From contig JALSTH010000040.1 in NCBI GenBank assembly GCA_026983835.1, positions 510 through 64,509 of the forward strand: a DNA stretch of 64,000 nt. Reading direction: 5' to 3'. A model generated the notes under the pieces. It searched no databases. It was not told the origin of the DNA and was given only the letters and a program-made list of their open reading frames with translations. The DNA is from Candidatus Zixiibacteriota bacterium (GTDB taxonomy: Bacteria > Zixibacteria > MSB-5A5 > UM-FILTER-46-8). The translations under genes were made by a program, and so were the position numbers. This document shows positions 7,990 through 60,947 of this stretch, in pieces. The number at the start of each line of letters is the position of its first letter. The stretch's first letter is position 1.

Positions 7990-9183
7990 ATGCCTAAAGA
8001 AATCGTATTAAAATATGATAGCGCATTAGATGACAAAGAGTTGCGTGCTATCAGATTATTTAACAAGCTATTCGATAAAAAAGAAATACAGTTAGGATAT
8101 GACAGCGATGAGGTAATTATTCTATTACAAGAGATCGATATTAACAAATTAAAAGAAATATCCTCTCATTTTTCCGGTTATACTGATAAGAAGATTTTCA
8201 AAGATGTTCTCCGCTCAATAGAACAGATAAAAAGTTATGGGATTAAAGGAAAGAAAAGAAACTATGTTGATTATAATAAGGAAAGAAAAGTAAAGGGCAG
8301 AAAGAGCAAGGAATTAATAAGACACCAATATTACTATACTCAAGGAAACACTTTCGCAAAAGATGAAAATAAATTCCCGGAGGAATATGAAAATAAAATT
8401 ATTGTTGGCGATAGCGAAAATATATTAAAGAATATACCCGATAACTCTGTCGATTTGGTTTTTACATCACCTCCATATAATTTCGGGCTTGATTATGCTC
8501 AAAATCAAGACGCACACTATTGGGAAGATTATTTTGCAAAGCTTTTTAAGGTTTTTAAAGAATGTATTAGAATTACAAAATATGGCGGGAGAATAATAAT
8601 AAATGTTCAGCCATTATTTTCGGATTATATACCAAGTCATCAAATAATAAGTAATTTTTTTATGAAAGAAAAACTTATTTGGAAAGGGGAAATTCTCTGG
8701 GAAAAAAACAATTATAACTGTAAATATACCGCTTGGGGAAGTTGGAAAAGTCCAAGTAATCCATATTTAAAATACACCTGGGAATTTATTGAAATATTTT
8801 GTAAAGGGGATTTAAAAAAGACTGGAATGAAAGAAAATATAGACATTTCCGCGGATGAATTTAAAAAATGGGTTGTAGCGAAATGGTCAATTGCTCCCGA
8901 AAGAAATATGAAAAAATATGGACATCCCGCAATGTTTCCCGAAGAATTAGTTGAGCGTGTTCTTAAACTGTTTAGTTATAAGGGAGACATCATATTAGAT
9001 CCATTTAACGGGGTAGGAACAACTACTGTTGTTGCAAAAAGATTAAAGCGGAAATATGTCGGGATAGACATATCGGAGAAATATTGTAAAATAGCAGAAA
9101 AAAGGATACGGGGTTTAAAAAATAAACTTGGGTTATTTGCAGATGGAATCCAAGTTAAAGATAAAAAATTGATGAGCTGGTAA
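7990..9183 (+). CDS. Solitary DNA methyltransferase (beta-class N4-cytosine/N6-adenine) with a lysine-rich ~130-aa N-terminal extension
   Basis: Motif IV DLVFTSPPYNFGLDY (SPPY) precedes motif I ILDPFNGVGTTTVVAKRL, the beta-class order. Strongly AT-rich relative to flanks. No adjacent restriction endonuclease ORF. Confidence 0.8.
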   Translation: MPKEIVLKYDSALDDKELRAIRLFNKLFDKKEIQLGYDSDEVIILLQEIDINKLKEISSHFSGYTDKKIFKDVLRSIEQIKSYGIKGKKRNYVDYNKERKVKGRKSKELIRHQYYYTQGNTFAKDENKFPEEYENKIIVGDSENILKNIPDNSVDLVFTSPPYNFGLDYAQNQDAHYWEDYFAKLFKVFKECIRITKYGGRIIINVQPLFSDYIPSHQIISNFFMKEKLIWKGEILWEKNNYNCKYTAWGSWKSPSNPYLKYTWEFIEIFCKGDLKKTGMKENIDISADEFKKWVVAKWSIAPERNMKKYGHPAMFPEELVERVLKLFSYKGDIILDPFNGVGTTTVVAKRLKRKYVGIDISEKYCKIAEKRIRGLKNKLGLFADGIQVKDKKLMSW

Positions 9184-10915: not shown

Positions 10916-11135
10916 ACAATCCTCCTAACTGAATATTTTTTATTTATCGGATGTTATAATATTATGATATTTAATACTTAACTTGCCAATTCATTAACAC
11001 GCTCAAATCTTTTAAAATTATAGGGATTTATATAATGTCGTAATCTGTTAGTCAAGGGATTTCTGTTTCCTCTCTTTCCTTTTTTGAGAAATGATGTCCT
11101 TTGGGAAATGGGAACTTAACCAAATTTTTCAAGGT

Positions 11136-11155
11136 TTGACTTGACAAAAAGTCAA
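11136..11155. promoter_or_regulatory. Perfect 7-bp inverted repeat TTGACTT-gacaaa-AAGTCAA overlapping a TTGACA -35-like hexamer; candidate operator/promoter in the 815-bp divergent intergenic region
   Basis: Read directly from sequence. Palindrome arms are 11136-11142 and 11149-11155. TTGACA lies at 11141-11146 with AT-rich -10-like hexamers 15-18 nt downstream. Confidence 0.3.
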
Positions 11156-11254
11156 TTTTATGATAATGATAACTTAATATCAAATTCCTATATAAGTTAG
11201 GAGTGATGGATTTTTTTTGATTATCGGCTTTTCTCCTAAAATAGGTTATAAAAA

Positions 11255-11363
11255 GGAGTCGAAGCCGAGCCTTGCGATCTATGGAAATAACTGAAAAGCC
11301 GTTTTTATGTATATCGGCATTTCAGAAGGATCACTTTAAATGCGCTCAGGGAGCTTCGACTCC
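11255..11363 (+). other. ~110-nt element closed by an 11-bp inverted repeat (GGAGTCGAAGC ... GCTTCGACTCC) with internal GCCG/CGGC hairpin; candidate structured RNA or miniature repeat element upstream of the tlpA-like operon
   Basis: Arms at 11255-11265 and 11353-11363 are exact reverse complements. Additional GAGC/GCTC pairing extends the stem. No ORF spans the element. Confidence 0.3.
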
Positions 11364-11734
11364 AAAATTTTAACCCGGACAGATAAAACTTCCAGAAGAA
11401 AAGGTTTTAAGTAAGTTCGTAATCCCTCGAATTTTAATCTATCCCGTAGAACGAAGCGTTGAATTTTCACCTGATTTCAACCCGCTATCGAGATTATTTT
11501 AAATCAATAATCAGAGAATAAATACTCCATTAGAATAATTTTGCAATCCCTCCCAATATTATCAAGTATTTTTAACCTTGACTTTATGGAAATTATTACT
11601 ATTTTTAAGACGGAAAGTAGATAATATTCTGATAATAGGTAATCCAACAAAAGATAAGGTCTGTTTCTTCTTTGGAATTCATTGAGATTAAATTAAAAGA
11701 TATACATTACTTTATCTGATATTATGGAGGATAA

Positions 11735-12271
11735 ATGAGTAAAAGGCTTGTAGTAGTAGCTATTTTTATTTTCGCCATTTTTATGGCTAACAACAGTTAC
11801 GCCGGTAAAAAAAAGGCGTTTGACTTCACATTAAACGATTTAAATAATAATCCAGTTAGTATGAAATCACTTTTAGGAAAGGGTCCTGTTTATATCGCCT
11901 TTTGGGCAACTTGGTGCAAACCTTGCAAAAATGAACTGGAGATTGTCAGCAAAATCTATGATGAATATAAAGATAGAGGGTTTCAACTTGTCGGTATTAA
12001 TGAAGATGCAGGCCATTCATTAGGAAAAGTAAAATCATTTGTTAAATCCCAAAAATGGAATTTCCCCATTTTATTGGACAAAAATGAAAAAGTAAAAAGG
12101 GATTACAAAGCTTTTGGATTACCATATTCGGTTATTTTGGATGCCGAAGGAAATATCATCCACACCGCTTACGGTTTCCGCCCGGGAGATGAGGTAAAAG
12201 TGAAGGAACTAATCGAATCCCATCTGTTAACGGATGAAGCAGATTCTACCGCAAAGAAAGCAACGGAATAA
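11735..12271 (+). CDS. TlpA/ResA-like periplasmic thiol:disulfide oxidoreductase (thioredoxin fold)
   Basis: Signal peptide, FWATWCKPCKNELE active-site C-x-x-C, overall TlpA-like redoxin layout. RBS GGAGGA upstream. Confidence 0.75.
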   Translation: MSKRLVVVAIFIFAIFMANNSYAGKKKAFDFTLNDLNNNPVSMKSLLGKGPVYIAFWATWCKPCKNELEIVSKIYDEYKDRGFQLVGINEDAGHSLGKVKSFVKSQKWNFPILLDKNEKVKRDYKAFGLPYSVILDAEGNIIHTAYGFRPGDEVKVKELIESHLLTDEADSTAKKATE

Positions 12272-12291: not shown

Positions 12292-13791
12292 GTGATTTAT
12301 ATGAATAGAGCTTTTTATTTTTTTATATTTTTACTTTTAACCTTGATAGTTATTCAAACAGTGCAGGCGGATGATGTTTCCATCCAAACCCAAAACAAGT
12401 TGGAATATTATTTAGACAGAAACCCGACCGATTCCGGGGTCCACAACGATAGTTTGCGCAATCGATTGACCGTTGATATGCTCTATGGTAATTTCTATGC
12501 CGGTATATGGTACGAAGCGTTCGAGCCAATTACGAGATTAACCACCGGAGACACATCTTATGAGGGAATTACCCAGAGGTATTTCGGCTGGACGGACGGC
12601 AATGCCGAGATAAGATTAGGGAACTATTATGCGAATTTCAATCGAGGCTTGATACTTCGGGCTTACGAAAATCAGGATGTCCAGATAGATAAGAACTTGG
12701 ATGGGGTGTGGGCGAGCTATCGGGGAAACAAATTCAACTTGGAGGCATTAAACGGGAAGATACTTCTTTCCGAGAACATTTTGCTTTCCCCTCTGATCCG
12801 CACGCGGGAAAATGACATTGTAGCTTTTCGAGGGGAATTGACACCTATCAGTAATATCTCCTTCGGCGGCGCCGCTTTGCGTTATAAAAAGAAAAACTCA
12901 TTTACCTCTGAGATAGAATATACCAATGCGCAGGAAATTACCGCCGGACTTACCTACGGTCCTTTTGATTTCTATGCCGATTATGGCCGTCAAGAAGGTA
13001 ATGAGGGGTTCTATATAGGGAGGCCTGATCTGAAAACAGGCGATGCGACCTATCTGACAGCTTCCTTCTCAACCGGACTTTTTGGCATCTCTGCGGAATA
13101 TAAGAATTATTATAATATGGCTTTGGATTTCAACGCCCCTCCTTCGGCGAACCATCGTGATCAATCGCCCAACGCTTTATGGGCGCAAAGTGGAGCTAAC
13201 GACAGGGGATTTCAGGTCTCGCTGTTTTTCGCTCCGCTTAATAATTGGACCGTTGAAGCCGATATCGCCCAGAGTGGTGAAAGACCCGATGAATACGGAC
13301 ATATCCAACAGAAAATATTCAACAACTTTTATGAGGTGCGGGGATATATCGGTAGGAATATTTTGATATTGAATTACGAACGCACCGATACCGGTGTCGA
13401 AGGATTGGAGCAATTGCCATACGGGGAGTTCACTTATTATCTCGATGATGACAACACTATCACACTGACCGGGCAGGTTAGAAAATTGGAACGCATTCGC
13501 GATTTGTTCGGTAAGGATGATTACAACGAAACCGACTACTCTATCTCATTTTCGCATTCGTATTTTCTTTCTATAACGGTTTACGGAGGCTTTACTTCGG
13601 AGGAGTTTCAACCTTGGGAACAATCCTTCCCCAAACGGAGCGGGGCGATATCATTGGGGCTTCGTTACGGGGAACATGATCTGAATATATTTTACGGGGA
13701 TCAGCGAGGCGGTTTCGTCTGCACCGAAGGCGCCTGTCGTGAAGTTCCACCATTTAGAGGTTTGAAAATAACTTTGGTATCGAGGTTTTAA
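12292..13791 (+). CDS. Outer-membrane protein (probable beta-barrel/porin-like), unknown family
   Basis: Cleavable signal (LLLTLIVIQTVQADD). G/Y/N/F-rich alternating strands. C-terminal ...TLVSRF ends in the aromatic residue typical of BAM substrates. Confidence 0.4.
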   Translation: MIYMNRAFYFFIFLLLTLIVIQTVQADDVSIQTQNKLEYYLDRNPTDSGVHNDSLRNRLTVDMLYGNFYAGIWYEAFEPITRLTTGDTSYEGITQRYFGWTDGNAEIRLGNYYANFNRGLILRAYENQDVQIDKNLDGVWASYRGNKFNLEALNGKILLSENILLSPLIRTRENDIVAFRGELTPISNISFGGAALRYKKKNSFTSEIEYTNAQEITAGLTYGPFDFYADYGRQEGNEGFYIGRPDLKTGDATYLTASFSTGLFGISAEYKNYYNMALDFNAPPSANHRDQSPNALWAQSGANDRGFQVSLFFAPLNNWTVEADIAQSGERPDEYGHIQQKIFNNFYEVRGYIGRNILILNYERTDTGVEGLEQLPYGEFTYYLDDDNTITLTGQVRKLERIRDLFGKDDYNETDYSISFSHSYFLSITVYGGFTSEEFQPWEQSFPKRSGAISLGLRYGEHDLNIFYGDQRGGFVCTEGACREVPPFRGLKITLVSRF

Positions 13792-13859: not shown

Positions 13860-14897
13860 ATGAAAAAACTGTTATTGGCAACGGTGGCGATTTTCTTGCT
13901 TTCTTACGGGAATTCCTTTGCCACTCTAAGAATGCCGCTCGGGGAAATGTTCACCAACACCGGCTGCGGACCTTGCTATAACGCCGAGATAGCTCTGGAC
14001 AACATAATGGAGGAGCATTGGGATGATTATTCCCTAATCCGCTATCATGTCAGTTGGCCCAGTTCCGGCGATCCGTTTTATACTTTCAACAGAGCGGAAA
14101 ATATGGACAGGAACGATTATTACAACAATGATTATACCCCTCATCTTTTCATTGATGGCATTGTTGACGGTGAATATTATTACAACAATTGGGACGATCA
14201 ATTTGCGTTGCGCTGGGACACCCCGAGTCCATTGGAAATCGAACTGATAGGTCATTATAATGGCGCTGACCGAGAGAATCAACTGCATATTTCGATGACC
14301 GCCACCGATAATATCAATTTCAATGATTTGCGGCTGTTCTGCGTTTTGATTGAGAATTACATCCAATATAACGCTCCCAACGGTGTGCGGCAACACGATC
14401 AAACTATGAGGGATATAGTCCCCGATTCCGATGGTGAATCATTTACCATAAGCAACGGTGAAACGAAGGAGTTCGATTTTACAATCGCTTTGGACCCGCA
14501 ATTGGCTGAGGATAACTGCGAGATAGTGGTCTTCGTTCAGGATTATTCCACGAAGGAAGTCCTTCAATCGGCAAAGATCGATGCTACCTCCGGCCAGACC
14601 GGAATTGATAACGATGGAAATGCTCTAACCCCAAAGACTACGATACTTTCCCAGAATTATCCCAATCCATTCAACGCCGAAACATCGATAGCTTTCAGTC
14701 TTGACAAAACCTCTTTCGTGAACCTCTCGGTTTACAACCTTAAAGGACAAAAGGTTGCGGAGTTGGCAAATGGTAATTACAAAGCCGGATTATATTCGGT
14801 CAGTTGGGATGCTTCCGAGCAAGCATCGGGAGTTTATTTCTACCGTTTAAGTGCCAACGGCGAGGTTAGAACCAGACGAATGGCTTTAATAAAATAG
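13860..14897 (+). CDS. Thioredoxin-fold T9SS cargo protein, Cys form (HBP35-like), paralog 1
   Basis: Signal peptide ending SFA. EMFTNTGCGPCY (CGPC thioredoxin motif), YTPHLFIDG cis-Pro-like region, C-terminal T9SS sorting domain NYPNPFNAETSIAF...GVYFYRLSANGEVRTRRMALIK. Confidence 0.7.
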   Translation: MKKLLLATVAIFLLSYGNSFATLRMPLGEMFTNTGCGPCYNAEIALDNIMEEHWDDYSLIRYHVSWPSSGDPFYTFNRAENMDRNDYYNNDYTPHLFIDGIVDGEYYYNNWDDQFALRWDTPSPLEIELIGHYNGADRENQLHISMTATDNINFNDLRLFCVLIENYIQYNAPNGVRQHDQTMRDIVPDSDGESFTISNGETKEFDFTIALDPQLAEDNCEIVVFVQDYSTKEVLQSAKIDATSGQTGIDNDGNALTPKTTILSQNYPNPFNAETSIAFSLDKTSFVNLSVYNLKGQKVAELANGNYKAGLYSVSWDASEQASGVYFYRLSANGEVRTRRMALIK

Positions 14898-14994: not shown

Positions 14995-16038
14995 ATGAGA
15001 AAGATATTCTCGGCGCTTGGTTTAGCGGTAATTATATTGCTAACGGCAGGAAGCTCCTTTGCATTAGATCGAGTTGTTATAGGAGAGCTTTTTACCAACA
15101 CTTCGTGACCGTATTGTAAAAATGCTGAATTGCAACTCGATCAGTTGACCGAGGAATACGCCGATACGATCGCCATAATACGCTACCATGTCAATTGGCC
15201 AAGTAGCGGCGATCCTTTTTACCTTTTCAATCCCGATGAAAGTATGAACAGGAACGGTTTCTATGGAAATAGCTATACCCCTCACCTTTTCATAGATGGT
15301 TCTGTGGATGCAGGCTCCAATTATTCCGGTTGGGGGACTATGTTTATGGACCGATATGCTATACCATCGGATTGGCAAATTAACGCTAACGGAACTTTTA
15401 ACCCCATAACGCGGGTAATACACCTTAATATAAGCATCGATCTGGACGGCGAAAATCCGGATGGCGTAGAATTTATAAGAACTGCTCTTACCGAGAGTGA
15501 TTTACATTTCAACGCGCCGAATGGTTTAACGGTATTTAATCAGGTTTTCAGGAATATGATGCCCATTATCTATGGTGTGACTGTCGAACCTGATAGCAAT
15601 GGTCATTTCGAAACTTCTTTCGATTTCACTGTGGATGAGGAAATTATTACCGAAAACTGCGAACTTGTGATGTTTATCCAATCAACGCGGGAACATAAAA
15701 TATATCAGGGGTATAAAATGCCGTTTACCGATTTAATAGAATCTTCGGTATCGGATGATAACGATAATATCCCTAATGAGTTCGCTCTCATCGGCAATTA
15801 TCCCAACCCTTTTAACTCCTCGACGGTAATCGAATTCAAAACCGAAAACCGCGGGAATGTGAAGTTAGGTGTTTATAATATAGCTGGGAAGAAGGTTGTC
15901 GATTTAATTGATGGCGGGTTGCCTGCGGGGTATCATTCTATCACATTTAATGCCGATGAGCTTCCCTCCGGCATCTATTTTTATCGACTGCGTTCCAATG
16001 ATAAAACAGCTGTCGGCAGAATGACTCTCGTTAAGTAA
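14995..16038 (+). CDS. Thioredoxin-fold T9SS cargo protein, predicted selenoprotein (in-frame TGA=Sec at 15106-15108), paralog 2. The six-frame ORF 15130-16038 is an N-terminally truncated call.
   Basis: GAGGAAA sits 5 nt before ATG 14995. The frame is open over 37 codons and encodes a signal peptide ending SFA, then ELFTNTS-TGA-PYCK. This aligns residue-for-residue with EMFTNTGCGPCY of paralog 1, with the TGA at the first Cys. Downstream region is collinear with paralog 1 (IRYHVNWPSSGDPFY, YTPHLFIDG) and ends in a T9SS CTD (NYPNPFNSSTVIEF...GIYFYRLRSNDKTAVGRMTLVK). Confidence 0.6.
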
Positions 16039-16060
16039 TATCGATAATATCCCTGATGTC

Positions 16061-16093
16061 AAGCGGCACGATTTTGCCGCTTGACTTTTTTTA
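16061..16093 (+). terminator. Rho-independent terminator after paralog 2 (AAGCGGC-acgatttt-GCCGCTT + TTTTTTATTT)
   Basis: 7-bp GC-rich stem at 16061-16067 / 16076-16082 followed by a T-tract. Confidence 0.6.
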
Positions 16094-16143
16094 TTTGGCG
16101 ATTTATTTTTTAATTGAATTGATCTTGTCAAGCAGGTAAAATA

Positions 16144-17175
16144 TTGAAAATAATAACAGGTTTATTTCTATCTTTGATGCTTTTGGTGGGGGGTGATTCG
16201 TTTGCGGCGACAAGGGTTGTCGTGGGGGAAATGTTCACCAACACATCGTGAGGGGCTTGTTCCTTAGCCGATATGACTCTCGATCAGTTGACCGAGCAAT
16301 ACAAAACTCAAATCGCCGTAATCCGATACCATATATGGTGGCCCTCATCGAAGGACCCCTATTATCAATACAACCCTGAGGAAGCAACCGCCAGAAATAA
16401 CTTTTATGCCAACCAATACGCCCCGCATCTTTTTATCGAGGGAAGCGATTATGGGTCGGAGTATGAGCAATGGGAAACAGCCTTCCTGCAGAGGATGGGC
16501 ATATCTTCCGATTGGTTTTTCAGCGTAGGGGGTGATTATAACCCCGACAACCGAAATCTTCATTTGGATATCGATATCTTCCTTGAAAATGAAAATCCCG
16601 AAGGGGTGGAGTTCTTACGAATTGCGTTGGTGGAGAATAATATATTCTGGCAGGCTCCCAATGGCGTGGATTGGCATAATCAGGTTTTTCGCGATATGAT
16701 ACCCGATCCGAACGGAGTAGAAATAACTCCCGATAATTCCGGTGTCTTCCAGACGGAAGTCGATTTCACCATAGGGGAAGAGATAGTCCTCGAAAACGCC
16801 GAGCTTGTATTATTTATCCAATCGACACGGGATAAGGAAATACTTCAGGGATACAAGGCTGCCCTTTCGGATTTCGAGATTAACTCGATTGATGATTCCC
16901 AAAATAAACCGATTAACAAGGCAGAGCTTTTTAATTACCCGAACCCTTTCAATTCCTCAACTGAAATTAAGTTCTTTCTCCCCCACAACGGACAAGTAAA
17001 GTTGGAAATCTATAACCTTATCGGGGAAAGGATAGCAACCCCGCTAAATGATAAACTATCCGCAGGGGAACATTCCGTCCTTTTTAGGGCGGATAACTAT
17101 TCTACCGGGGTGTATTTTTGTAAATTATCTTATGGAAAATTAAATCTGATCAGCAAGATGGTCTGTATTAAATAA
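16144..17175 (+). CDS. Thioredoxin-fold T9SS cargo protein, predicted selenoprotein (in-frame TGA=Sec at 16249-16251), paralog 3. The six-frame ORF 16273-17175 is an N-terminally truncated call.
   Basis: TTG 16144 is the first start after an in-frame stop at 16120-16122, with AGGT 6 nt upstream. It encodes LKIITGLFLSLMLLVGGDSFAA (signal peptide ending SFA), then GEMFTNTS-TGA-GACS. The rest is collinear with paralogs 1 and 2 and ends in a T9SS CTD (NYPNPFNSSTEIKF...GVYFCKL...KMVCIK). Alternative ATG at 16177. Confidence 0.55.
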
Positions 17176-17793: not shown

Positions 17794-18882
17794 TTAGTTG
17801 ACGGATTCTGAGGATTTTTCCAATAATTGCTGCGCTCGGTAATATTCCTGCAACTTTTCGATTATCGCACTCAAATCGCCGTTTAATATGGATTCGAGGC
17901 TGTGCAGAGTAAGCCCGATGCGGTGATCGGTAACCCGATTTTGGGGGAAATTGTAGGTGCGGATCTTTTCGGAACGGTCGCCGCTTCCAACCATCGCTTT
18001 CCGTTTTGAGGCTAGTTTTCGTTGTTCCTCTTGATTAGCTTTATCCAGCAGCCTCGCCCGTAGAACTTTCATCGCTTTGTTTTTATTCTTCAACTGCGAT
18101 TTCTCGTCCTGACAGGTAACGATTGTACCGGTAGGAATATGTGTTATTCGTACCGCCGAATCGGTGGTGTTGACCGATTGACCGCCGGGGCCCGAGGAGT
18201 GGAAAACATCAATACGCAGGTCATTCGGATTAATCTCGATATCCACTTCTTCCGCTTCGGGAAGAATCGCCACAGAAGCCGCCGATGTATGAATCCTACC
18301 AGATGCCTCGGTAACCGGAACCCGCTGTACCCTATGAACTCCCGATTCATACTTCAAAACACCGTAAGCCCCTTCCGCTTCAACGCTAAAAATAATTTCC
18401 TTGAAACCGCCAACGCCGGTGGGATTTGAACTCAGGACTTCTAACTTCCACCCCTTTTCCTCGATAAAATGGGAATACATCCGATATAAATCAGCCGCAA
18501 ACAGCGCCGCCTCATCGCCACCGGTACCGGCTCGTATCTCCACAATAGCTTTTTTACGGTCGTTGGGGTCTTTCGGGGCTAATAAATCCCGAAGCTTGTT
18601 CTCCAATTCATCCAACTTGGGAAGAAGCTCCTCTATTTCCGCATCCGCCAATTCCAAAAGATCTTCATCCTTCGAAATTTCCCTCAACTCCTTATCCTCG
18701 TTAATTCTCTCAAGGATCTTTTGGTATTTTTCGGAAATTTTTATAATTTCCTGCAGTTCAGAATGCTCACGGGCGATTTTACTGTATTTTTTATGATCTG
18801 CCAATATTTCGGGATTGGATAGCTCTTCGGTCAGCCTCGTGTGTTTTTCCCTGATATTATCTATAATCGATAAATCAATCAT
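17794..18882 (-). CDS. prfA: Peptide chain release factor 1
   Basis: GGQ motif ([23 protein letters not shown]) and PVT tripeptide ([15 protein letters not shown]), both RF1-specific. Near-collinear with E. coli RF1. Confidence 0.9.
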
Positions 18883-32621: not shown

Positions 32622-35417
32622 TTGATGGGTTTTTGTGATTATATTATTGGAGGTAAAAGAATGAAAAAGTTATTTTTGTTCTCTCTTGTTTCGTTTATGG
32701 CGATCTACGGTATCGCTGCCGCTACCTTTGTCAGCGGCGATATTTCGGGAGGGTGGACTGCGGACAACAACCCATATCTTGTATTAGGGGATTTGCAGAT
32801 TCCTCAGGACTCAACACTGACCATTTATCCGGGAGTATCGATTTATTTTTTGGGGAATTATGAATTAAATGTGAATACTGCAGCTACTTTAGTAGCGCTG
32901 GGTAGCGAAAGCGATTCGATTACCTTCACTACTATCGACACTTCCGTAGTTTGGGGCGGCATAAAAATTCATTCGGCTGAAGCATATCTATCCTTTTGCC
33001 GCCTTAGAAACGGAAAAGCTACAGCATATAACCCCTATTCCGGTGGCGCTGTTTTTTGCGACCATTCTAATCTTCTCTTAACTAACTGCACAATCAACAA
33101 TCACATAGCGAGTTATAATGGCGGTGCAATATATTGCGTCTCCTCAAGTGTAGTAATAAGCAGTAGTATCATAAGCGGGAATTTGTCTTTTGCCGGCAGT
33201 GGTGGAGCAATTTGTTGTGATTCCTCAAGCATAGTCATATTTAATAATACTATCGACGAAAATTCTGCCGGTGAATATGGAGGGGGAATTTGCTGCGTGT
33301 ATTCTAGCGGAGAAATTAGCGAAAACAATATCATCAACAATACGGCCGATAACGCTGGCGGTGGAATTATTTGTTTTCATTCGGACCCGATCATAAGTAA
33401 TAATACCATCAATCATAATTCAGCCATTAATGGTGGTGGTATCAATTGCTGTGGCCATTCAGCCCCGACCGTGAGTGGAAACACTATCGGCAATAATTCA
33501 GCAGATAGCTCTGGTGCAGGAATTTACTGCAATTATTCGAGCCCGAGGATAAGCGATAATTTCATCGTGAACAATTCCATATCCGGTAACTATGGACTAT
33601 CTGGTAGTTATGGTGGCGGGATTTACTGCTATCATTCGAGCCCGAGAATAAACAATAATACTATTGCCAATAATTCTAATTCCGGTGATTATGGCGGAGG
33701 AATTTGTTGCGATTATTATTCTAATCCAAAGATATAATACAATACTATCAGGCATAATTCAGTCGCGAGTTACGGTGGTGGCATCTACTGTTATAGCTCC
33801 AACCCGGACATAAGCCAAAATACTATCGGTAACAATTCAGTCGGTATCGGTGGCTACGGTGGCGGTATTTACTGCTATGGCTCCAACCCGAACATAAGCC
33901 AAAATAATATTGATAACAATTCGGTCGGTATCGGTGGTTATGGTGGCGGTATCTACTGTTATGGCTCTAACCCGAGCATAAGCAAAAATAATATTGATAG
34001 CAATTCGGTCGGTATAAGTGGTTATGGAGGTGGTATCTATTGTAACTCTTCCAATCCGCCAATAAATGGAAACACTATTAAAAATAATGCTGCCGATTTA
34101 TCCGGTGGGGGGATTTACTGCAATTTCTCGAATGTTGAGATAAAGATGAACAAAATCAACAATAATTCCGCCGGGCTTTCCGGTGGGGGGATTTATTGCA
34201 ATTCTTCCCACCCGAGAATTGCCAAAAATACCATCGGCAGCAATTCAGCTTCTATTTCCGGTGGGGGGATTTTCTGCAAATCCTCCCAATCGACAATAAA
34301 TGGAAATGTTATCACCGGCAACAGAGCCGATTACTTCGGTGGCGGGCTTTATCTTATCTCTTCCAACCAAACGACAATGAGCAATAACACCATTAGCAAC
34401 AATACTGCCCATTTCTATGGTGGTGGACTTTACAGCTGTAATAATTCCGCTATAAAGGTTGTTAATACTATTTTGTGGGCTGACTCCTCCGCCCGCAACA
34501 GCGAAATCTATTTGGAAAACGATTCCATAGCTATATCTTTTTCCGATATACAGGGTGGATGGGAAGGTAGTTGGAATAATAATATGAACCCGTTATTTGT
34601 CGATCCTGAAAATGGGGATTATCATCTGCAGGAGGGTTCTCCCTGTATAGATGCCGGCGATCCGAACTCGCCCTTTGACCCGGATAGCACAATCTCCGAT
34701 ATGGGAGCGCTTTATTTCTATCAGGGTGGGGGGAATGGTATTTCTATCATAGCCGACCCCATCGATCCGCCGATTATCGTTTCCCAAGGCTCCAGTTTCA
34801 ATTATTACGGGTATCTCATTAACACGACAGATACGGATTTGACTACCGATGTTTGGTGCAGAACATTGATGCCTGATGGTTCTCTATCCGACACGATTCG
34901 CGTATGGAGCGAGGTGTCGGTGGCGGCTAATAGCACCATAGAGGATTTTATTGTTCAATATATTCCTACCTATGCCTCTCTGGGCGATTATTTATATATC
35001 ATTTATGACGGGGATTATCCGAATATTATGAATTCTGCTTATTTCCCCTTCACGGTTATTGCGGCTACCGAAGGATTAGCGGGGAGTGATCGTGGCTGGG
35101 AGGTAAGTGGGTGGGGAGGGAAAGCGGACGATATGGATGCTGTAAACATCCCTGCCAAATTAACCTTGAAGGACAACTATCCGAATCCGTTCAATGCGCA
35201 GACCACTATTACCTATCAACTGCCAAAAGCAGGCGATGTTTCCTTGGATATTTACAATCTAATGGGACAGAAGGTGGCTACGCTAGTCAACGGCAATGTT
35301 GAAGCTGGTTCACATACGGTTGTTTGGAATGCCGGCTATTATTCCAGTGGGATTTATTTCTATAAACTAACCGCCGGCAATAAAGTCTTCACCAAACGGA
35401 TGACACTGCTGAAATAG
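32622..35417 (+). pseudogene. Right-handed parallel beta-helix repeat T9SS cargo protein (adhesin-like), one continuous 932-codon frame interrupted by a single in-frame TAA at 33735-33737. The ORF calls 32622-33737 and 34146-35417 are its two pieces.
   Basis: Signal peptide. Dozens of ~22-aa N-x-[AS]-x-x-GGGI[YFI]C-x-x-S-x-P-x-I-x-x-N-x-I repeats continue in the same frame on both sides of the stop (…SNPKI*YNTIRHNSV…); I hand-translated 33738-34160 with no further stops. C-terminal T9SS CTD NYPNPFNAQTTITYQL...GIYFYKLTAGNKVFTKRMTLLK. Confidence 0.55.
33740..34060 (+). repeat. Near-identical 66-nt (22-codon) tandem DNA repeats inside the beta-helix gene
   Basis: Three to four consecutive units such as ggtatcggtgg(c/t)ta(c/t)ggtggcggtat(t/c)tactg(c/t)tatggctc(c/t)aacccg(a)a(c)cataagc(c)aaaataatattgata(a/g)caattcggtc, encoding YGGGIYCYGSNP.IS.NNID.NSVGIGG. 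Confidence 0.6.
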
Positions 35418-54936: not shown

Positions 54937-57381
54937 ATGATAAAAAGAATTAAAAAAATTAAGGGAGTTGGAAGATTTTTGAATGTCGGCCATACGGAGC
55001 TTGGCCGATTAACCTTAATCTATGGCCCTAATTGTTATGGCAAGTCAACCCTTTCTGATATTTTCCGTTCAATAGCGAATAAAAATCAAGAGATTTTATC
55101 AAACAGATATTCTATTGTAAGAAATGGTGGCCCTATTGCCCAAGAAATATGTTTTAGCGTTAAAACTGATGTGGATCAGACAGAACAAGATATTTCTTGC
55201 GTTGACCGAAAGTGGAATACAGGAAGCTTCAATTACTCGATAGAAGTTTTTGACTCTCGGTTTATTGAGGATAATGTTTTTACCGGTTTAACAATTTCAA
55301 GGGACAATAAAAAAAACCTTACCAATTTGTTGATAGGTGAAAAAAGTGTTGAGATTGGCAAACAAATAGACTCTTTAAAAAATAAATCGCTTCACGAAAA
55401 GACAAAAGATATTGGCGAACTTGAGGATTCGCTCAAAAGAAATTTGGGAACTTTAAATTTAGGAATAAGTCTTGAAGACTTTATATCAGTCGAGAAGCCG
55501 GATGATATTGAAACGACTAAATCTAAATTAACTATGCTTCAAGAAAATCTGAAGAAAGTTATAAAATTAATTTCGGAAAAGAATAAGATTCTCGAACTCG
55601 ATGGACCATTAATACTTTCTATAGAAGATCCCGAGCCGACAATTAAAATTCTAAAAGATTCGCTGGAAAAAGGTTTTGAAGATATAAACGATACTGCATA
55701 TAAGCGAATGCGAGAACATATAGAACAACACTTCAAATCCCACGATGGCGAAGAAGAAGAGTGGATTGAAAAAGGGGTAAATGCCTATCTTAAACAAAAT
55801 AAAGATACAACCGTCTTAAATTGTCCGTTTTGTAGTCAATCTTTAGCTACAGTTGTTGATCTTATTGAGACATATAAAACAGTGTTCAGCGAGGAATATG
55901 AAAGCTTTTATAATGAAGCTCTTAGAATGCTGGACGATAAACATCAAGAATTCAATAAAATTATTAACAACATTAAATTAGTAGAAAATTCAGTAAATAA
56001 AAATTTGGCAATTTGCGGACGCTGGCAGGGTTATTTTACAGACGAGACCCAAAAACTCATTGAACAAATAGATAATTTCAGCAATAAAGTGAATAAATCC
56101 AAAAGCAACCTCGTAGGGCTAATGGAAGAAGTTTCCGGCAAATTTGGAGAACTTATCGGTGAAAAAAAGAAGAAGCCTTTTGTTTCTATTAAGGAATTTC
56201 CTACTGGCGATAAATTACTAACCACTTATCAGCAATTCGCAGAAATGGTAAATAAATACAATGAAGACGTAAAGTTACTTATTATAGAAATAAACACCCT
56301 TAAAACAAGGAGTCAGAATGACCAACTAGTAAAAGAGTCAGAAAACTTGAGCAATAAAATAGAGGACATAAAAACAAAAATAAAAAGATCCGAATTAGCG
56401 GCAGATATAGACAAATATCAACTTTTAAAAAGAGAGAAAGATAAAATAGAACAGGAAATTAAAAAATTGCAGGAAAAACTAGAGCAAGAAAATACAAAAT
56501 TCATTGAGCAATACTTTCAGGATACAACGCACATTTTTAATAGATTAGGCTCTATTGACTTTGAAATTCAGACAACTTATAGACGTTGGGGAGGTCAGCC
56601 GGTATATGAACCGACAATCAAATTTGCAAACGAAGAAATTACTTTTAATCGATTACCATTTATATTTAGTGATGCGGACAGGAGGGCTTTGGCATTTTCA
56701 ATTTTCATTTCAAAACTCAGAAATAAAAGTGAGGCTGAATTAAAAAATACCATCGTTTTTTTAGACGATCCAATAACCAGCTTTGACGACAATAGAATTT
56801 CACAGACCTTTATAGAGATTAAGAATCTTACAACATCTTGCCGCCAATTAATTATAGCTGCACATCACAGCAGATTTTTACTTGATACTTACGAGAAACT
56901 AAAAAGCCTTCCGAATCTGGATTTAAAATTTATTGAAATCAAAAGAGATGGTTTTGGTACCCTCTTTGGGTTGGTTAGTGATCCTAAAACTAGATTAGAC
57001 CCCCATGCTCAAGAAATAGAGAAGGTGGAAAGATTTATTAATGGCGATTCTGATGTAAACGCGTCGGACGTGCGTAGATCATTAAGACCAATACTAGAAA
57101 AAGAGATAGAGTGGAGGTTCAGAAGAGACTTAAAAGGAGTATCTTTTGAGGGGCTTGGCGATATTGTTACCAAACTGAAAGAAAAAAATTCAATAAGCGA
57201 GAAGATAGCAAGAAGGATTTACGACTTTAATGACGTACTTATAGATGACCATCACGAAACAACTTTAGATACGAATGAAGATACAAGAAATTTGTCTAGA
57301 GATATCATTGAATTTATTTTTAAAGAACTAATCCCTAATAGTAAGTCCTTGAATTCTGAATTTAAAAAACTTGATAAATAG
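54937..57381 (+). CDS. RloC-like (AAA_13 family) ABC-type ATPase with coiled-coil insert carrying a CxxC zinc-hook; candidate anticodon-nuclease/defence protein
   Basis: N-terminal IKKIKGVGRFLNVGHTELGRLTLIYGPNCYGKSTL (Walker A). Roughly 500-aa K/E-rich coiled coil containing LNCPFCSQSL. Distal signature-like FSDADRRALAFSIF, Walker B IVFLDDPITSFDDNR, H-loop IIAAHHSRF. About 160-aa C-terminal domain. The gene is very AT-rich. Confidence 0.6.
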   Translation: MIKRIKKIKGVGRFLNVGHTELGRLTLIYGPNCYGKSTLSDIFRSIANKNQEILSNRYSIVRNGGPIAQEICFSVKTDVDQTEQDISCVDRKWNTGSFNYSIEVFDSRFIEDNVFTGLTISRDNKKNLTNLLIGEKSVEIGKQIDSLKNKSLHEKTKDIGELEDSLKRNLGTLNLGISLEDFISVEKPDDIETTKSKLTMLQENLKKVIKLISEKNKILELDGPLILSIEDPEPTIKILKDSLEKGFEDINDTAYKRMREHIEQHFKSHDGEEEEWIEKGVNAYLKQNKDTTVLNCPFCSQSLATVVDLIETYKTVFSEEYESFYNEALRMLDDKHQEFNKIINNIKLVENSVNKNLAICGRWQGYFTDETQKLIEQIDNFSNKVNKSKSNLVGLMEEVSGKFGELIGEKKKKPFVSIKEFPTGDKLLTTYQQFAEMVNKYNEDVKLLIIEINTLKTRSQNDQLVKESENLSNKIEDIKTKIKRSELAADIDKYQLLKREKDKIEQEIKKLQEKLEQENTKFIEQYFQDTTHIFNRLGSIDFEIQTTYRRWGGQPVYEPTIKFANEEITFNRLPFIFSDADRRALAFSIFISKLRNKSEAELKNTIVFLDDPITSFDDNRISQTFIEIKNLTTSCRQLIIAAHHSRFLLDTYEKLKSLPNLDLKFIEIKRDGFGTLFGLVSDPKTRLDPHAQEIEKVERFINGDSDVNASDVRRSLRPILEKEIEWRFRRDLKGVSFEGLGDIVTKLKEKNSISEKIARRIYDFNDVLIDDHHETTLDTNEDTRNLSRDIIEFIFKELIPNSKSLNSEFKKLDK

Positions 57382-57542: not shown

Positions 57543-58691
57543 TCATTCGGTAAATAAATCCAGGTACTCTTTTAATATGAACATTCTGTTTCGCGAAAAG
57601 CCAGTGTATTCTCTTAAAATATTAATCTCCACAAGATCCTTTATGAGAGAGTTTGCTGCTTTATAAGATACATCAAGAACATCCTGCGCCTGACGGACAC
57701 CGATAATAGGTTTCCCAAACATATATTCAAGAAGTCTATTGCCCGATTTCGCCCTTCTCCCCAGTTTTAATATCTCATTATCATATCTCCTTTTCAATTT
57801 GATAATATTCTCTAAAGTCATCTTGCCGTTTTCTACGGTTTCTATTATTACTGAAAGGAAAAATATTATCCACTGTTCAATATCATTTTTTAGCCGAACA
57901 GAGTTTAATATATCATAATAGGCGGCGCGGTGCTTCTCAAAAAAGTAGGAAATGTAAAGAGTAGGCTTTCGTAATAAACCATAATAAATCAATTGCAGAG
58001 TTATAAGCAACCGCCCTATCCTACCATTGCCGTCTAAAAAGGGATGTATCGTTTCAAATTGATAGTGAGTTAAAGCTACTTTTATAAGGTGCGGTATGCC
58101 AAGGGATTCATTGTGCCAAAATTTCTCCAAATCTTTTAAAAGGTTAGGCAATTCCCTATGATGAGGAGGAACGAAAGAAGCGTTGCGCAAATTTGATCCC
58201 CCAATCCAATTTTGACTTTTGCGGATTTCCCCCGGTTGCTTTTGCTGACCCCGTACCCCTGATAATAGAATTTTATGTGTCTCCCCTATCAATCGCATAC
58301 AGAGAGGTAATTCCTTAAGTTTATCAACCGCAAAATTAATTGCTTTTATGTAATTTTGAACTTCCTCCCAATCGTCTCTTATCTCCGGTTTTATTTCCTC
58401 CTTCGGGAGGACAGCTTCAGTTATATTGGTTTTCGTACCTTCGATTTTACTTGAGGTCGTAGCCTCTTTTATAATATGCATTTGAATAAAAAAATCGACA
58501 TCTGGGACAAGTAAAGAATAGGCATTTAATTCCCCTAAAAGCCTTGCAGCCTTTTCTAACAAAATATCTATATCGGCACTATGCCATTTGAACCTTTTAT
58601 TGACATAGTTTGGTGTGAAGCTTTTATATTCGGATTCTGTTGCCCTGAGCTGTTTTTCGTATTTGCCGGAAGCAAAATCCATTTCATCCAT
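57543..58691 (-). CDS. Fic-family protein (AMPylator-type), class II: N-terminal inhibitory motif present
   Basis: Canonical Fic motif [14 protein letters not shown] (HxFx[D/E]GNGRxxR). Upstream SSKIEG matches the [S/T]xxxE[G/N] inhibitory helix. Confidence 0.85.
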
Positions 58692-58946: not shown

Positions 58947-60947
58947 CTATTTCACCAGCGTCATCTTCTTAATCGATGTCTTGCCTAAATTGGTGAGTTT
59001 TGCGTAATATATTCCGCTCGGCATATCCGCGGCATTCCATCTTATACTGTGCGTTCCCGCCGACAAATAACCATCAACCAGCTTCGCCACCTCCCGCCCG
59101 GCGATATTATAAACCGTCAAGTCAACCTCTCCCCCATAAACCAAAGAAAAGTTGATATTGGTCGCCGCATTGAAAGGATTCGGATAATTGCCGTGCAAAG
59201 CAAACTCGACAGGATGCGAAGCGTTGGAATTATCATCGGGGAGCTTGATATCGTGATTCTCGTTCCATTTATCGAGACCGACCACATCCCAATCGGCGGA
59301 GTTTCCACCCGCACCTTCAATTACCGTGAACGGAAACGATGCCGAGCTGATTACGCTGTCGGGATAATCCCCACAATAAGCGATATAATTATAGTCGCCC
59401 AACGGTGCATAACCCGGAATATGTTGGGTCATAGCAGCTGTCAAGGTATCGTGAGGGAGCATAATTATATGATCCATTTCCTGAATCGGACCATAAATTC
59501 CATAATCGGGGACATCGAGCATAATCCACACATCGGTAACCTGAACATCAGCCGTGTTGTTGATAAGCACGCCTGTGTATTGGAAACTACCGCCCGGCGT
59601 GACTACAACGGGGTCTTCGGCAGGTATCATATCGATGTAGATATCCGGCATAGAACCGCCCGATATGGCGAACATCTTGCCACCGCTGGAGAGATATTGA
59701 GTGCCGGCGATAATATCACAGTTCCCATCGCCATCCAGATCGCCCGCCGCCCGAACCGTTTTCAGACGGTTTCCGGTATTGTACTGCCACAATATCGAGC
59801 CATCGGAACCATCGCAGAGATAAACATTATAATCGAAACTCCCACCGACAACCTCATCGATACCATCCTGCGTGACATCGGGAACATTATCGATAGTCCA
59901 GACATCACCGCCGTTTAAATCCCCCACAGTTGTGCTCCAATTGACCGCTCCGGTGGCGCCATCAAGGGAGATGATACGATTATCCCAACTGGCAACCAAC
60001 GCCTCCGGAATACCATCGCCGTTCTGATCGCCGCCGACTTTAACCTCCATCACGCTTGTGCCGATATTCGATTGCCAAATAAGGTCTCCATTTGCCGCCG
60101 ATAAGCAGTAAACATTTTCGGACCACGAACCGGCTAAAACATCCTGCAATCCATCGCCGTCCACATCGACGAAACCTTCGACATCCCAAACTGATTGGCC
60201 TGTATGGTATTCCCAAATCAAAGTACCGGTAGCACCATCAACGCAAATTACTCTATCTTCATACGGATCGCCGGCGCCGATAATTGCCTCCGGGGCATCA
60301 TCGTAGTTGATCGAGCCTATGGAAGAAACGGCGAAAACCGCATCATTTGCTTGGAATTTCCAAATCAGCGAACCGTCAACGCCTGACAGGGCTACCGCAG
60401 CATCTTGATAGGAACCAAAGCCAGCCAAGACATCAGGGATGCCATCGAAATTCAAATCGCCGGTCATATGTATTGAATAGCACCAACCACTGGGTTCGTG
60501 GACATAAGTATCGTAAACCCATTCGGTAGAGCCATCGGCGCCATTGATAAGGAAAGCACTTCTGCCACCCCAAGCGGTGCCTAATAAAACCTCATCGATT
60601 CCATCGCCATCATCGTCGGTATAGCGGGAAAGGCAGTCATCACCATAACCTCCCCCGGATGATACGCCACCTTGGGGTCCGGCAGACCAAAGGACGACAG
60701 GACTGCCGTTATTTCCGGGACCTGACAAACAAAACAGGTTATGATCGCCTTGATAAGCTGAATTACCCCAGATGCCGACTACATCGGGATGGGAATCGCC
60801 ATCGACATCGGAGAATCCCATCACGCAGACACAATGATCATCCGGACCTTGATAGGACCAGATAAGGTCGCCCGCTTGGTAAGCAAACGAGCTACCCGCA
60901 AAGAGCATTACCCCAAGGAGAACAACGCCAGTTAACATTTTTCGCAT
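58947..60947 (-). CDS. FG-GAP/beta-propeller repeat T9SS cargo protein
   Basis: Signal peptide. Repeated ...DVDGDG..D...G....-type FG-GAP/VCBS-like units. T9SS CTD GNYPNPFNAATNINFSL...GIYYAKLTNLGKTSIKKMTLVK. Confidence 0.65.
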   Translation of the reverse strand: MRKMLTGVVLLGVMLFAGSSFAYQAGDLIWSYQGPDDHCVCVMGFSDVDGDSHPDVVGIWGNSAYQGDHNLFCLSGPGNNGSPVVLWSAGPQGGVSSGGGYGDDCLSRYTDDDGDGIDEVLLGTAWGGRSAFLINGADGSTEWVYDTYVHEPSGWCYSIHMTGDLNFDGIPDVLAGFGSYQDAAVALSGVDGSLIWKFQANDAVFAVSSIGSINYDDAPEAIIGAGDPYEDRVICVDGATGTLIWEYHTGQSVWDVEGFVDVDGDGLQDVLAGSWSENVYCLSAANGDLIWQSNIGTSVMEVKVGGDQNGDGIPEALVASWDNRIISLDGATGAVNWSTTVGDLNGGDVWTIDNVPDVTQDGIDEVVGGSFDYNVYLCDGSDGSILWQYNTGNRLKTVRAAGDLDGDGNCDIIAGTQYLSSGGKMFAISGGSMPDIYIDMIPAEDPVVVTPGGSFQYTGVLINNTADVQVTDVWIMLDVPDYGIYGPIQEMDHIIMLPHDTLTAAMTQHIPGYAPLGDYNYIAYCGDYPDSVISSASFPFTVIEGAGGNSADWDVVGLDKWNENHDIKLPDDNSNASHPVEFALHGNYPNPFNAATNINFSLVYGGEVDLTVYNIAGREVAKLVDGYLSAGTHSIRWNAADMPSGIYYAKLTNLGKTSIKKMTLVK

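Follow-up and report, generated by a model that had tools for sequence, protein, structure and literature searches.

Is the TGA codon at positions 15106-15108 of this stretch of Candidatus Zixiibacteriota DNA (64 kb in all, called the window below) a stop codon, or is it read as selenocysteine (Sec) inside a single gene? The codon lies in the middle member of three tandem paralogs, referred to here as P1, P2 and P3. A mechanical list of open reading frames gives P2 only as 15130-16038, starting from a TTG, and in the public annotation (P0001, 230 aa) the gene begins later still, at Met 15346. The original prediction was that the gene starts further upstream and that the TGA encodes Sec. From the sequence evidence we consider it very likely that the UGA of P2 is indeed decoded as selenocysteine and that 14995-16038 is one intact gene. 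This reading is supported by the column of Cys and TGA codons in homologs, by selection on the segment upstream of the TGA, by a conserved hairpin downstream of it, and by the fold of the product together with its C-terminal sorting domain. Both P2 and its neighbor P3 are, in our view, well-supported selenoprotein genes.

Reading frame through the TGA codon and its column in homologs

The trio and the elements that define the P2 frame are located as follows:

13860..14897, + strand: paralog P1, a Cys form with the motif C-G-P-C, 42% identical to P2
14982..14988, + strand: Shine-Dalgarno-like GAGGAAA of P2, 6 nt ahead of ATG 14995, read directly from the sequence
14995..16038, + strand: full P2 gene, predicted selenoprotein, 347 codons including one for Sec, plus stop
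14995..15063, + strand: signal peptide of P2, MRKIFSALGLAVIILLTAGSSFA, read directly from the sequence
15106..15108, + strand: in-frame TGA of P2, predicted Sec codon, first position of U-P-Y-C (15106-15117)
16058..16095, + strand: terminator-like hairpin of 11 bp (7 GC) followed by a T-run, after the P2 stop and before P3
16144..17175, + strand: paralog P3, second predicted selenoprotein gene, U-G-A-C, 50% identical to P2

The 37 open codons between ATG 14995 and the TGA encode MRKIFSALGLAVIILLTAGSSFALDRVVIGELFTNTS, that is, a signal peptide of 23 residues, with R and K in its n-region, a hydrophobic core and an SFA cleavage-type end, and then LDRVVIGELFTNTS. After the TGA the sequence continues with PYCKNAELQLDQL (PYCKNAEL...) in unchanged frame to TAA 16036-16038; in translation, ELFTNTS-TGA-PYC is in frame with the ORF 15130-16038. 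The end of the signal peptide reads ...SSFA-LDR in the translation and is free of a lipobox Cys. Inspection of the sequence ahead of TTG 15130 revealed no Shine-Dalgarno motif. The start at ATG 14995, the GAGGAAA ahead of it and the in-frame signal peptide had all been put forward in the original prediction, and all three can be seen in the sequence and its translation. Read through the TGA, P2 would consist of the signal peptide, a thioredoxin-like domain with U-P-Y-C, an Omp28-like beta-sandwich and a T9SS type A C-terminal sorting domain (CTD), in this order.

Since P1 reads EMFTNTGCGPCYNAEI at the column in question, the TGA of P2 falls in the column of the first CGPC Cys and would give U-P-Y-C, just as had been proposed. 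P3 has a TGA of its own in the equivalent column (16249-16251); TTG 16144 is its probable start codon, and a separate signal peptide, LKIITGLFLSLMLLVGGDSFA, is encoded ahead of the TGA. The designation of P2 as the second of a set of paralogs thus refers to a real tandem array, in which P3 is present as a third copy. The three proteins are 39-50% identical to each other, and their motifs follow in the order CGPC, UPYC and UGAC, with P2 in the middle; U-P-Y-C resembles the CPYC dipeptide of glutaredoxin, and CGPC of P1 the thioredoxin motif. In thioredoxin-fold enzymes the xx dipeptide tunes the redox potential, and the different dipeptides therefore suggest that the potentials of the three paralogs are differently tuned. 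Sets of Sec and Cys paralogs that occur naturally within one operon lend themselves to the question of why a particular redox site favors Sec. Because of the strong terminator-like hairpin that lies between them, at 16058-16085, P3 is probably transcribed separately from P2.

The nearest relatives of P2 (P0002-P0006, P0012, P0014, P0015, P0017 and P0018) are 290-301 aa long or truncated at the N-terminus, and begin just past the CxxC position; P0002-P0006 are annotated at 295-297 aa. Farther, full-length relatives (P0007-P0011, P0013 and P0016) have TNTS-C-x-x-C. We extended the truncated genes on four related contigs upstream, and in all ten the frame continues past a single in-frame TGA, located in the same column, up to a start codon, with a signal peptide encoded in between. 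The layout of this upstream segment is as in P2 in all of these homologs. Across related contigs and GTDB representative genomes, approximately 39 non-redundant TGA forms compare with approximately 25 Cys forms (TGC or TGT) at this column, and neither TAA nor TAG occurs there in any of them. The TGA forms come from about 23 sources: Zixibacteria, Gemmatimonadota (CP070758.1 among them), TA06, Glassbacteria and unclassified bins. They include many Zixibacteria MAGs as well as two complete Zixibacteria chromosomes (CP070742.1 and CP070813.1).

Coding constraint is seen on either side of the TGA. When the members of three ortholog pairs are compared, the 14 codons ahead of it differ by 16 synonymous and only 2 non-synonymous changes; as changes there are mostly synonymous, this segment must be translated in the frame of the downstream ORF. 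The original prediction would have been weakened if homologs could do without the signal peptide and the motif; we find instead that the upstream segment is conserved and under purifying selection, and that homologs have either Cys or TGA at the column. Published criteria for a bacterial selenoprotein gene call for an in-frame TGA that is matched by Cys in two or more homologs, and for more than one independent TGA sequence (PMC1088965 / PMC13188914), and both are found here. A genetic code in which TGA is a sense codon throughout was considered and rejected, since 10 of the 48 ordinary ORFs of the window end with TGA. Beyond P2 and P3, no other gene with an in-frame TGA was found in the window; the remaining candidates were ordinary stops or non-coding frames.

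SECIS-like hairpins after the TGA

Two short hairpins lie downstream of the TGA codons of the window:

15136..15153, + strand: SECIS-like hairpin of P2, CUCGAUC-AGUU-GACCGAG, seven stem positions with one A.C mismatch and a 4-nt loop
16279-16296, + strand: hairpin of P3, the 18-nt CTCGATCAGTTGACCGAG, identical to the P2 copy

The P2 hairpin occupies nt 31-48, with the U of the UGA taken as nt 1, and begins 27 nt after this codon; its loop starts 34 nt past the UGA and has G at its second position, followed by U. According to the bSECIS model, the loop has 3-9 nt, with a G in its first two positions followed by G or U, the distance from UGA to loop is 16-37 nt, and the upper stem has 4-16 bp with an MFE of -7.5 kcal/mol or below (PMC13188914). 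In loop size, G position and spacing (34 nt) the P2 hairpin agrees with this model. In terms of energy the hairpins alone, at -5.6 (P2) and -4.5 kcal/mol (P3), lie above the limit of -7.5; this is because of the A.C mismatch, which leaves 6 of the 7 stem positions paired in P2. The orthologous hairpins reach -7.1 to -12.1 kcal/mol, and the two of the window are the weakest of the family. If the full 60 nt after the UGA are allowed to fold, the energies are -10.8 (P2) and -10.3 kcal/mol (P3). An Rfam scan of the whole window returned no matches.

Each of the twelve Sec genes in the clade to which the window belongs has a hairpin at nt 31-48. In an ungapped alignment of these genes, 88% of the cells pair, as compared to 17-45% when the 3' partners are slid, and compensatory changes occur in 3 of the 7 pairs; the covarying positions include synonymous third bases of Leu (CUC/CUU) and Asp (GAU/GAC) codons. 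The original prediction had named the lack of a SECIS-like structure as a point that would speak against it, and a conserved hairpin with compensatory changes is what we observe. Because the hairpin overlaps the codons for the conserved peptide LDQL, part of its conservation is at the protein level. It is nonetheless absent from the Cys forms that encode LDQL (L006, L007 and L008:3112), in which Gln is encoded by CAA and not CAG, so that the loop G is lost.

Differences in folding between Sec and Cys forms are also seen family-wide. The 57 nt after the codon have a mean MFE of -18.2 kcal/mol (z -1.63) in Sec forms vs -9.8 kcal/mol (z 0.0) in Cys forms (Mann-Whitney p = 4e-6, for groups that lack phylogenetic independence and have different GC contents, 0.56 and 0.48). 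In the two Sec genes of the window, this downstream segment has z-scores of -0.5 and -0.07. Another clade of Zixibacteria (L016, L017, L018, L021 and L024) has a second hairpin design, GCUGAUCU-GGUCUU-AGAUCAGC, at nt 19-40 after the UGA, and a third design is present in Gemmatimonadota-like loci (L045, L047 and L052); two SECIS designs are thus recurrent within one protein family. In locus L008, the Cys gene 3112 keeps nearly the same 8-9 bp GGUCUU hairpin (nt 19-40) as its Sec paralogs 4329 and 5546, which could reflect either a recent conversion between Sec and Cys or a structure partly imposed by the peptide D-L-V-L-D-Q.

We propose that the hairpin just 3' of the UGA would recruit SelB and Sec-tRNASec, and that Sec would in this way, which is the usual one in bacteria, be inserted at 15106-15108. 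Within the 64-kb window and the fetched loci, no selA, selB, selD or tRNA-Sec was found: ARAGORN reported no tRNA-Sec in the window or any locus, Pfam no SelA, SelB or SelD domains among window ORFs of at least 150 aa, and tblastn with E. coli SelD no match in the window and 70 loci.

Fold, family and alternatives to selenocysteine

The sorting domain of P2 is located at its C-terminus:

15799..16014, + strand: T9SS type A C-terminal sorting domain of P2, residues 269-340 (PF18962, TIGR04183)

Both profiles exceed their curated cutoffs, PF18962 with 41.2 bits (cutoff 27) and TIGR04183 with 43.8 bits (cutoff 23), which bears out the earlier assignment of this domain. A T9SS type A cargo combines such a CTD with a Sec signal peptide, and in P2 the latter is present only if the TGA is read through. 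An AF2 model was made of P1, and the arrangement of beta1, CxxC and alpha1 that is typical of the thioredoxin fold is present, with a conserved cis-Pro loop. By Pfam, P1 is an Omp28 protein with 70.8 bits, while P2, at 33.6 bits, falls just below the cutoff of 34.9; a match to DUF1223 is weak.

The best NCBIfam match of P1 and P2 is NF045500, 'Omp28-related selenoprotein' (E 5e-16 for P1 and 7e-12 for P2). This family corresponds to 'Hypothetical protein GOS_C', predicted in 2008 from Global Ocean Sampling data on the basis of 74 Sec sequences and 312 Cys homologs, with UxxC in a thioredoxin-like fold (PMC2398784); a 2026 review lists GOS_C under the accession NF045500 (Table 1, PMC13188914). 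P2 has in common with it an Omp28-like sequence, a thioredoxin-like fold with a single Sec in UxxC, a large number of Cys homologs and a SECIS-like hairpin downstream of the TGA, and the profile alignment starts ahead of the motif; the Sec columns of the family and the trio probably coincide. The family differs in that the last ~95 of its 377 model positions do not align with the T9SS CTD of the trio. The scores of 45.3 (P2), 47.2 (P3) and 59.2 bits (P1) fall well below the cutoff of 200, as do those of relatives (29-75 bits, the highest belonging to the closest Cys form of Zixibacteria). As NF045500 is matched only far below its cutoff, the clade of the window is, judged by sequence, a divergent subfamily that has gone unrecognised, while the superfamily to which it belongs, thioredoxin-fold selenoproteins with UxxC, is known.

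The original prediction had compared P2 to HBP35 of P. gingivalis (PDB 5y1a). HBP35 is secreted by the T9SS and attached to the cell surface; it contains a thioredoxin motif, and thioredoxin activity has been reported for it (PMC3120885 and references there). The likeness is correct at the level of fold and architecture, that is, a thioredoxin domain combined with a T9SS CTD. At the level of sequence, identity is 12%, and HBP35 was not recovered when PDB sequences were searched with a profile; HBP35 also has Cys in place of Sec, belongs to another phylum with another gene context, and it alone has known roles in hemin binding and coaggregation. Its attachment to the surface is by way of A-LPS. 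Omp28 of P. gingivalis (PF11551, NF033782, PDB 2r2c) is a lipoprotein, whereas P2 has no lipobox but a T9SS CTD; the scores against NF033782 are 34-55 bits, compared to a cutoff of 150. DUF1223 (PF06764; PDB 2axo, Atu2684) can be grouped with Omp28 as a nearby known family. Known exported UxxC selenoproteins comprise DsbA-like and DsbG-like proteins, a thiol:disulfide interchange protein and a TlpA-like protein with UGC (Table 1, PMC13188914). In these as in P2, Sec takes the place of the N-terminal, nucleophilic Cys of CxxC in a thioredoxin-fold oxidoreductase; they are periplasmic single-domain proteins, while P2 adds a beta-sandwich, a T9SS export signal and a tandem arrangement with a Cys paralog.

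In calling a surface selenoprotein of this kind uncommon, the original prediction overstated the case, since an Omp28-like UxxC family has been known since 2008 as GOS_C and other outer-membrane selenoproteins have been predicted, as listed in the 2026 review (PMC13188914). Our literature searches for selenoproteins together with Omp28, DUF1223 or type IX secretion returned no relevant paper, and those for Sec use in Zixibacteria found nothing. NCBI names the truncated proteins 'T9SS type A sorting domain-containing protein' and the Cys forms 'Omp28-related outer membrane protein'. Public annotation of genes like P2 (230-297 aa) loses the signal peptide and the catalytic center, and correcting it recovers a sizeable, multi-phylum subfamily of predicted secreted selenoproteins that is missed by the existing NCBIfam selenoprotein model.

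Could the TGA be a real stop after all, with the gene starting at TTG 15130 or ATG 15346, or could P2 be a decaying pseudogene of the Cys paralog? This is how gene callers annotate P2 and its relatives (P0001 with 230 aa, P0002-P0006 with 295-297 aa); HBP35 has been reported to yield truncated cytoplasmic forms from one mRNA (PMC3120885), and no Sec machinery was found in the window or the fetched loci. However, a stop or a decaying gene fits poorly with a single TGA in ~39 genes from ~23 sources that is always found in the Cys column and never replaced by TAA or TAG, and equally poorly with an upstream frame, including the signal peptide and strand beta1, that is conserved mostly by synonymous change. 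The shortened product would have to be initiated at a TTG without a Shine-Dalgarno sequence, or further downstream; judged from the AF2 model, its thioredoxin fold would be left without beta1 and the redox motif, and the product would have a T9SS CTD with no route across the inner membrane. We regard this explanation as very unlikely.

A related possibility is that the UGA is read through, but without selenium, by insertion of Cys, Trp or Gly through a suppressor or near-cognate tRNA or a reassigned code. Selection on the full frame demonstrates read-through and not the identity of the residue, and the missing Sec machinery in the window and fetched loci would be compatible with this too. Against it, TGA ends 10 of the 48 window ORFs, with no other in-frame TGA candidates there, and its use within genes is limited to one catalytic Cys column that is followed by a hairpin with SECIS-like distance and loop features; moreover, NF045500, to which the trio is related, has been curated as a selenoprotein family. 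We consider selenium-free read-through to be just as improbable as a real stop. A trivial explanation would be a sequencing or assembly error, given that a single substitution separates TGA from either Cys codon, TGC or TGT. The two adjacent paralogs P2 and P3 contain independent TGAs, however, the same protein sequence is recorded in several independent sources (NCBI, JGI, Logan and ENA), and dozens of homologs from other assemblies show TGA at this position, which reduces the chance of an error to a negligible level. Decoding as Sec thus remains by far the preferred reading of the P2 codon.

Gene neighborhood and a possible role at the cell surface

Two further genes precede the trio in a conserved cluster:

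11735..12271, + strand: TlpA/ResA-like secreted thioredoxin-family protein with WCKPC, first gene of the cluster
12292..13791, + strand: DUF6029 protein, predicted large outer-membrane beta-barrel, with the Cys pair C474 and C479 and a C-terminal Phe

The Cys pair C474/C479, near the C-terminus of the DUF6029 protein, is invariant. The AF2 model of this protein (pLDDT 77.9) consists entirely of antiparallel strands, and Foldseek matches it to AlgE, usher pores and porins. In related contigs the same order recurs, with the redoxin and the DUF6029 gene followed by one Cys form and two to four Sec forms, and one or both of the partners are linked to an Omp28-like gene in approximately 30 further loci from several phyla. 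The module of redoxin, DUF6029 protein and Omp28-like C/UxxC protein is thus present in L001, L003, L005-L008 and ~30 loci of L010-L066; it spans Zixibacteria, Gemmatimonadota, Marinimicrobia and others, including several phyla of the FCB group.

If P2 is made as a selenoprotein, its preprotein would cross the inner membrane by the Sec translocon and fold in the periplasm, where the U-P-Y-C redox center would come to lie at the N-terminus of helix alpha1. It would then be exported by the T9SS and probably be surface-anchored, and would in this way be located at the cell surface or in the extracellular space, like HBP35. There, the U-x-x-C center may act as a thiol/selenol-disulfide oxidoreductase. 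We base both the suggested surface location and the suggested redox role on homology and fold. The conserved gene order in turn suggests a functional link between the TlpA-like protein, the DUF6029 barrel and the surface proteins, and this module may have its place of action on the surface of uncultured bacteria from sediment and groundwater. We speculate, although we think it rather doubtful, that the T9SS-exported Cys and Sec paralogs at the surface, the TlpA-like reductase and the DUF6029 barrel could together form a redox relay across the outer membrane, which would carry reducing power to extracellular substrates. If such a relay existed, P2 and its relatives would be the first selenoprotein cargo of the T9SS, and Zixibacteria, Gemmatimonadota and related phyla would have a thiol/selenol system of a new kind outside the cell.

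The window also encodes two more proteins with a T9SS type A CTD, at 34146-35417 (+ strand) and 58947-60947 (- strand), one of them a NosD-like beta-helix and the other an FG-GAP/beta-propeller protein; given these two, the organism evidently makes wide use of T9SS cargo. Upstream of the TlpA-like gene lies an AT-rich segment of ~820 nt (10916-11734), without a convincing ORF or an Rfam match, which may contain the promoter of the cluster or be involved in its regulation. Immediately past the trio, at 17794-18882 (- strand), is a release factor gene; the P-V-T tripeptide identifies it as RF1, which reads UAA/UAG, and not the UGA-reading RF2, and its position next to genes with a recoded UGA is probably a coincidence. 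Elsewhere in the window, the gene for an AAA_13 ATPase of 814 aa (54937-57381, + strand) adjoins that for a Fic/DOC protein (57543-58691, - strand), and a stand-alone N6/N4 DNA methylase is encoded at 7990-9183 (+ strand); these three genes may be defence or toxin-related.
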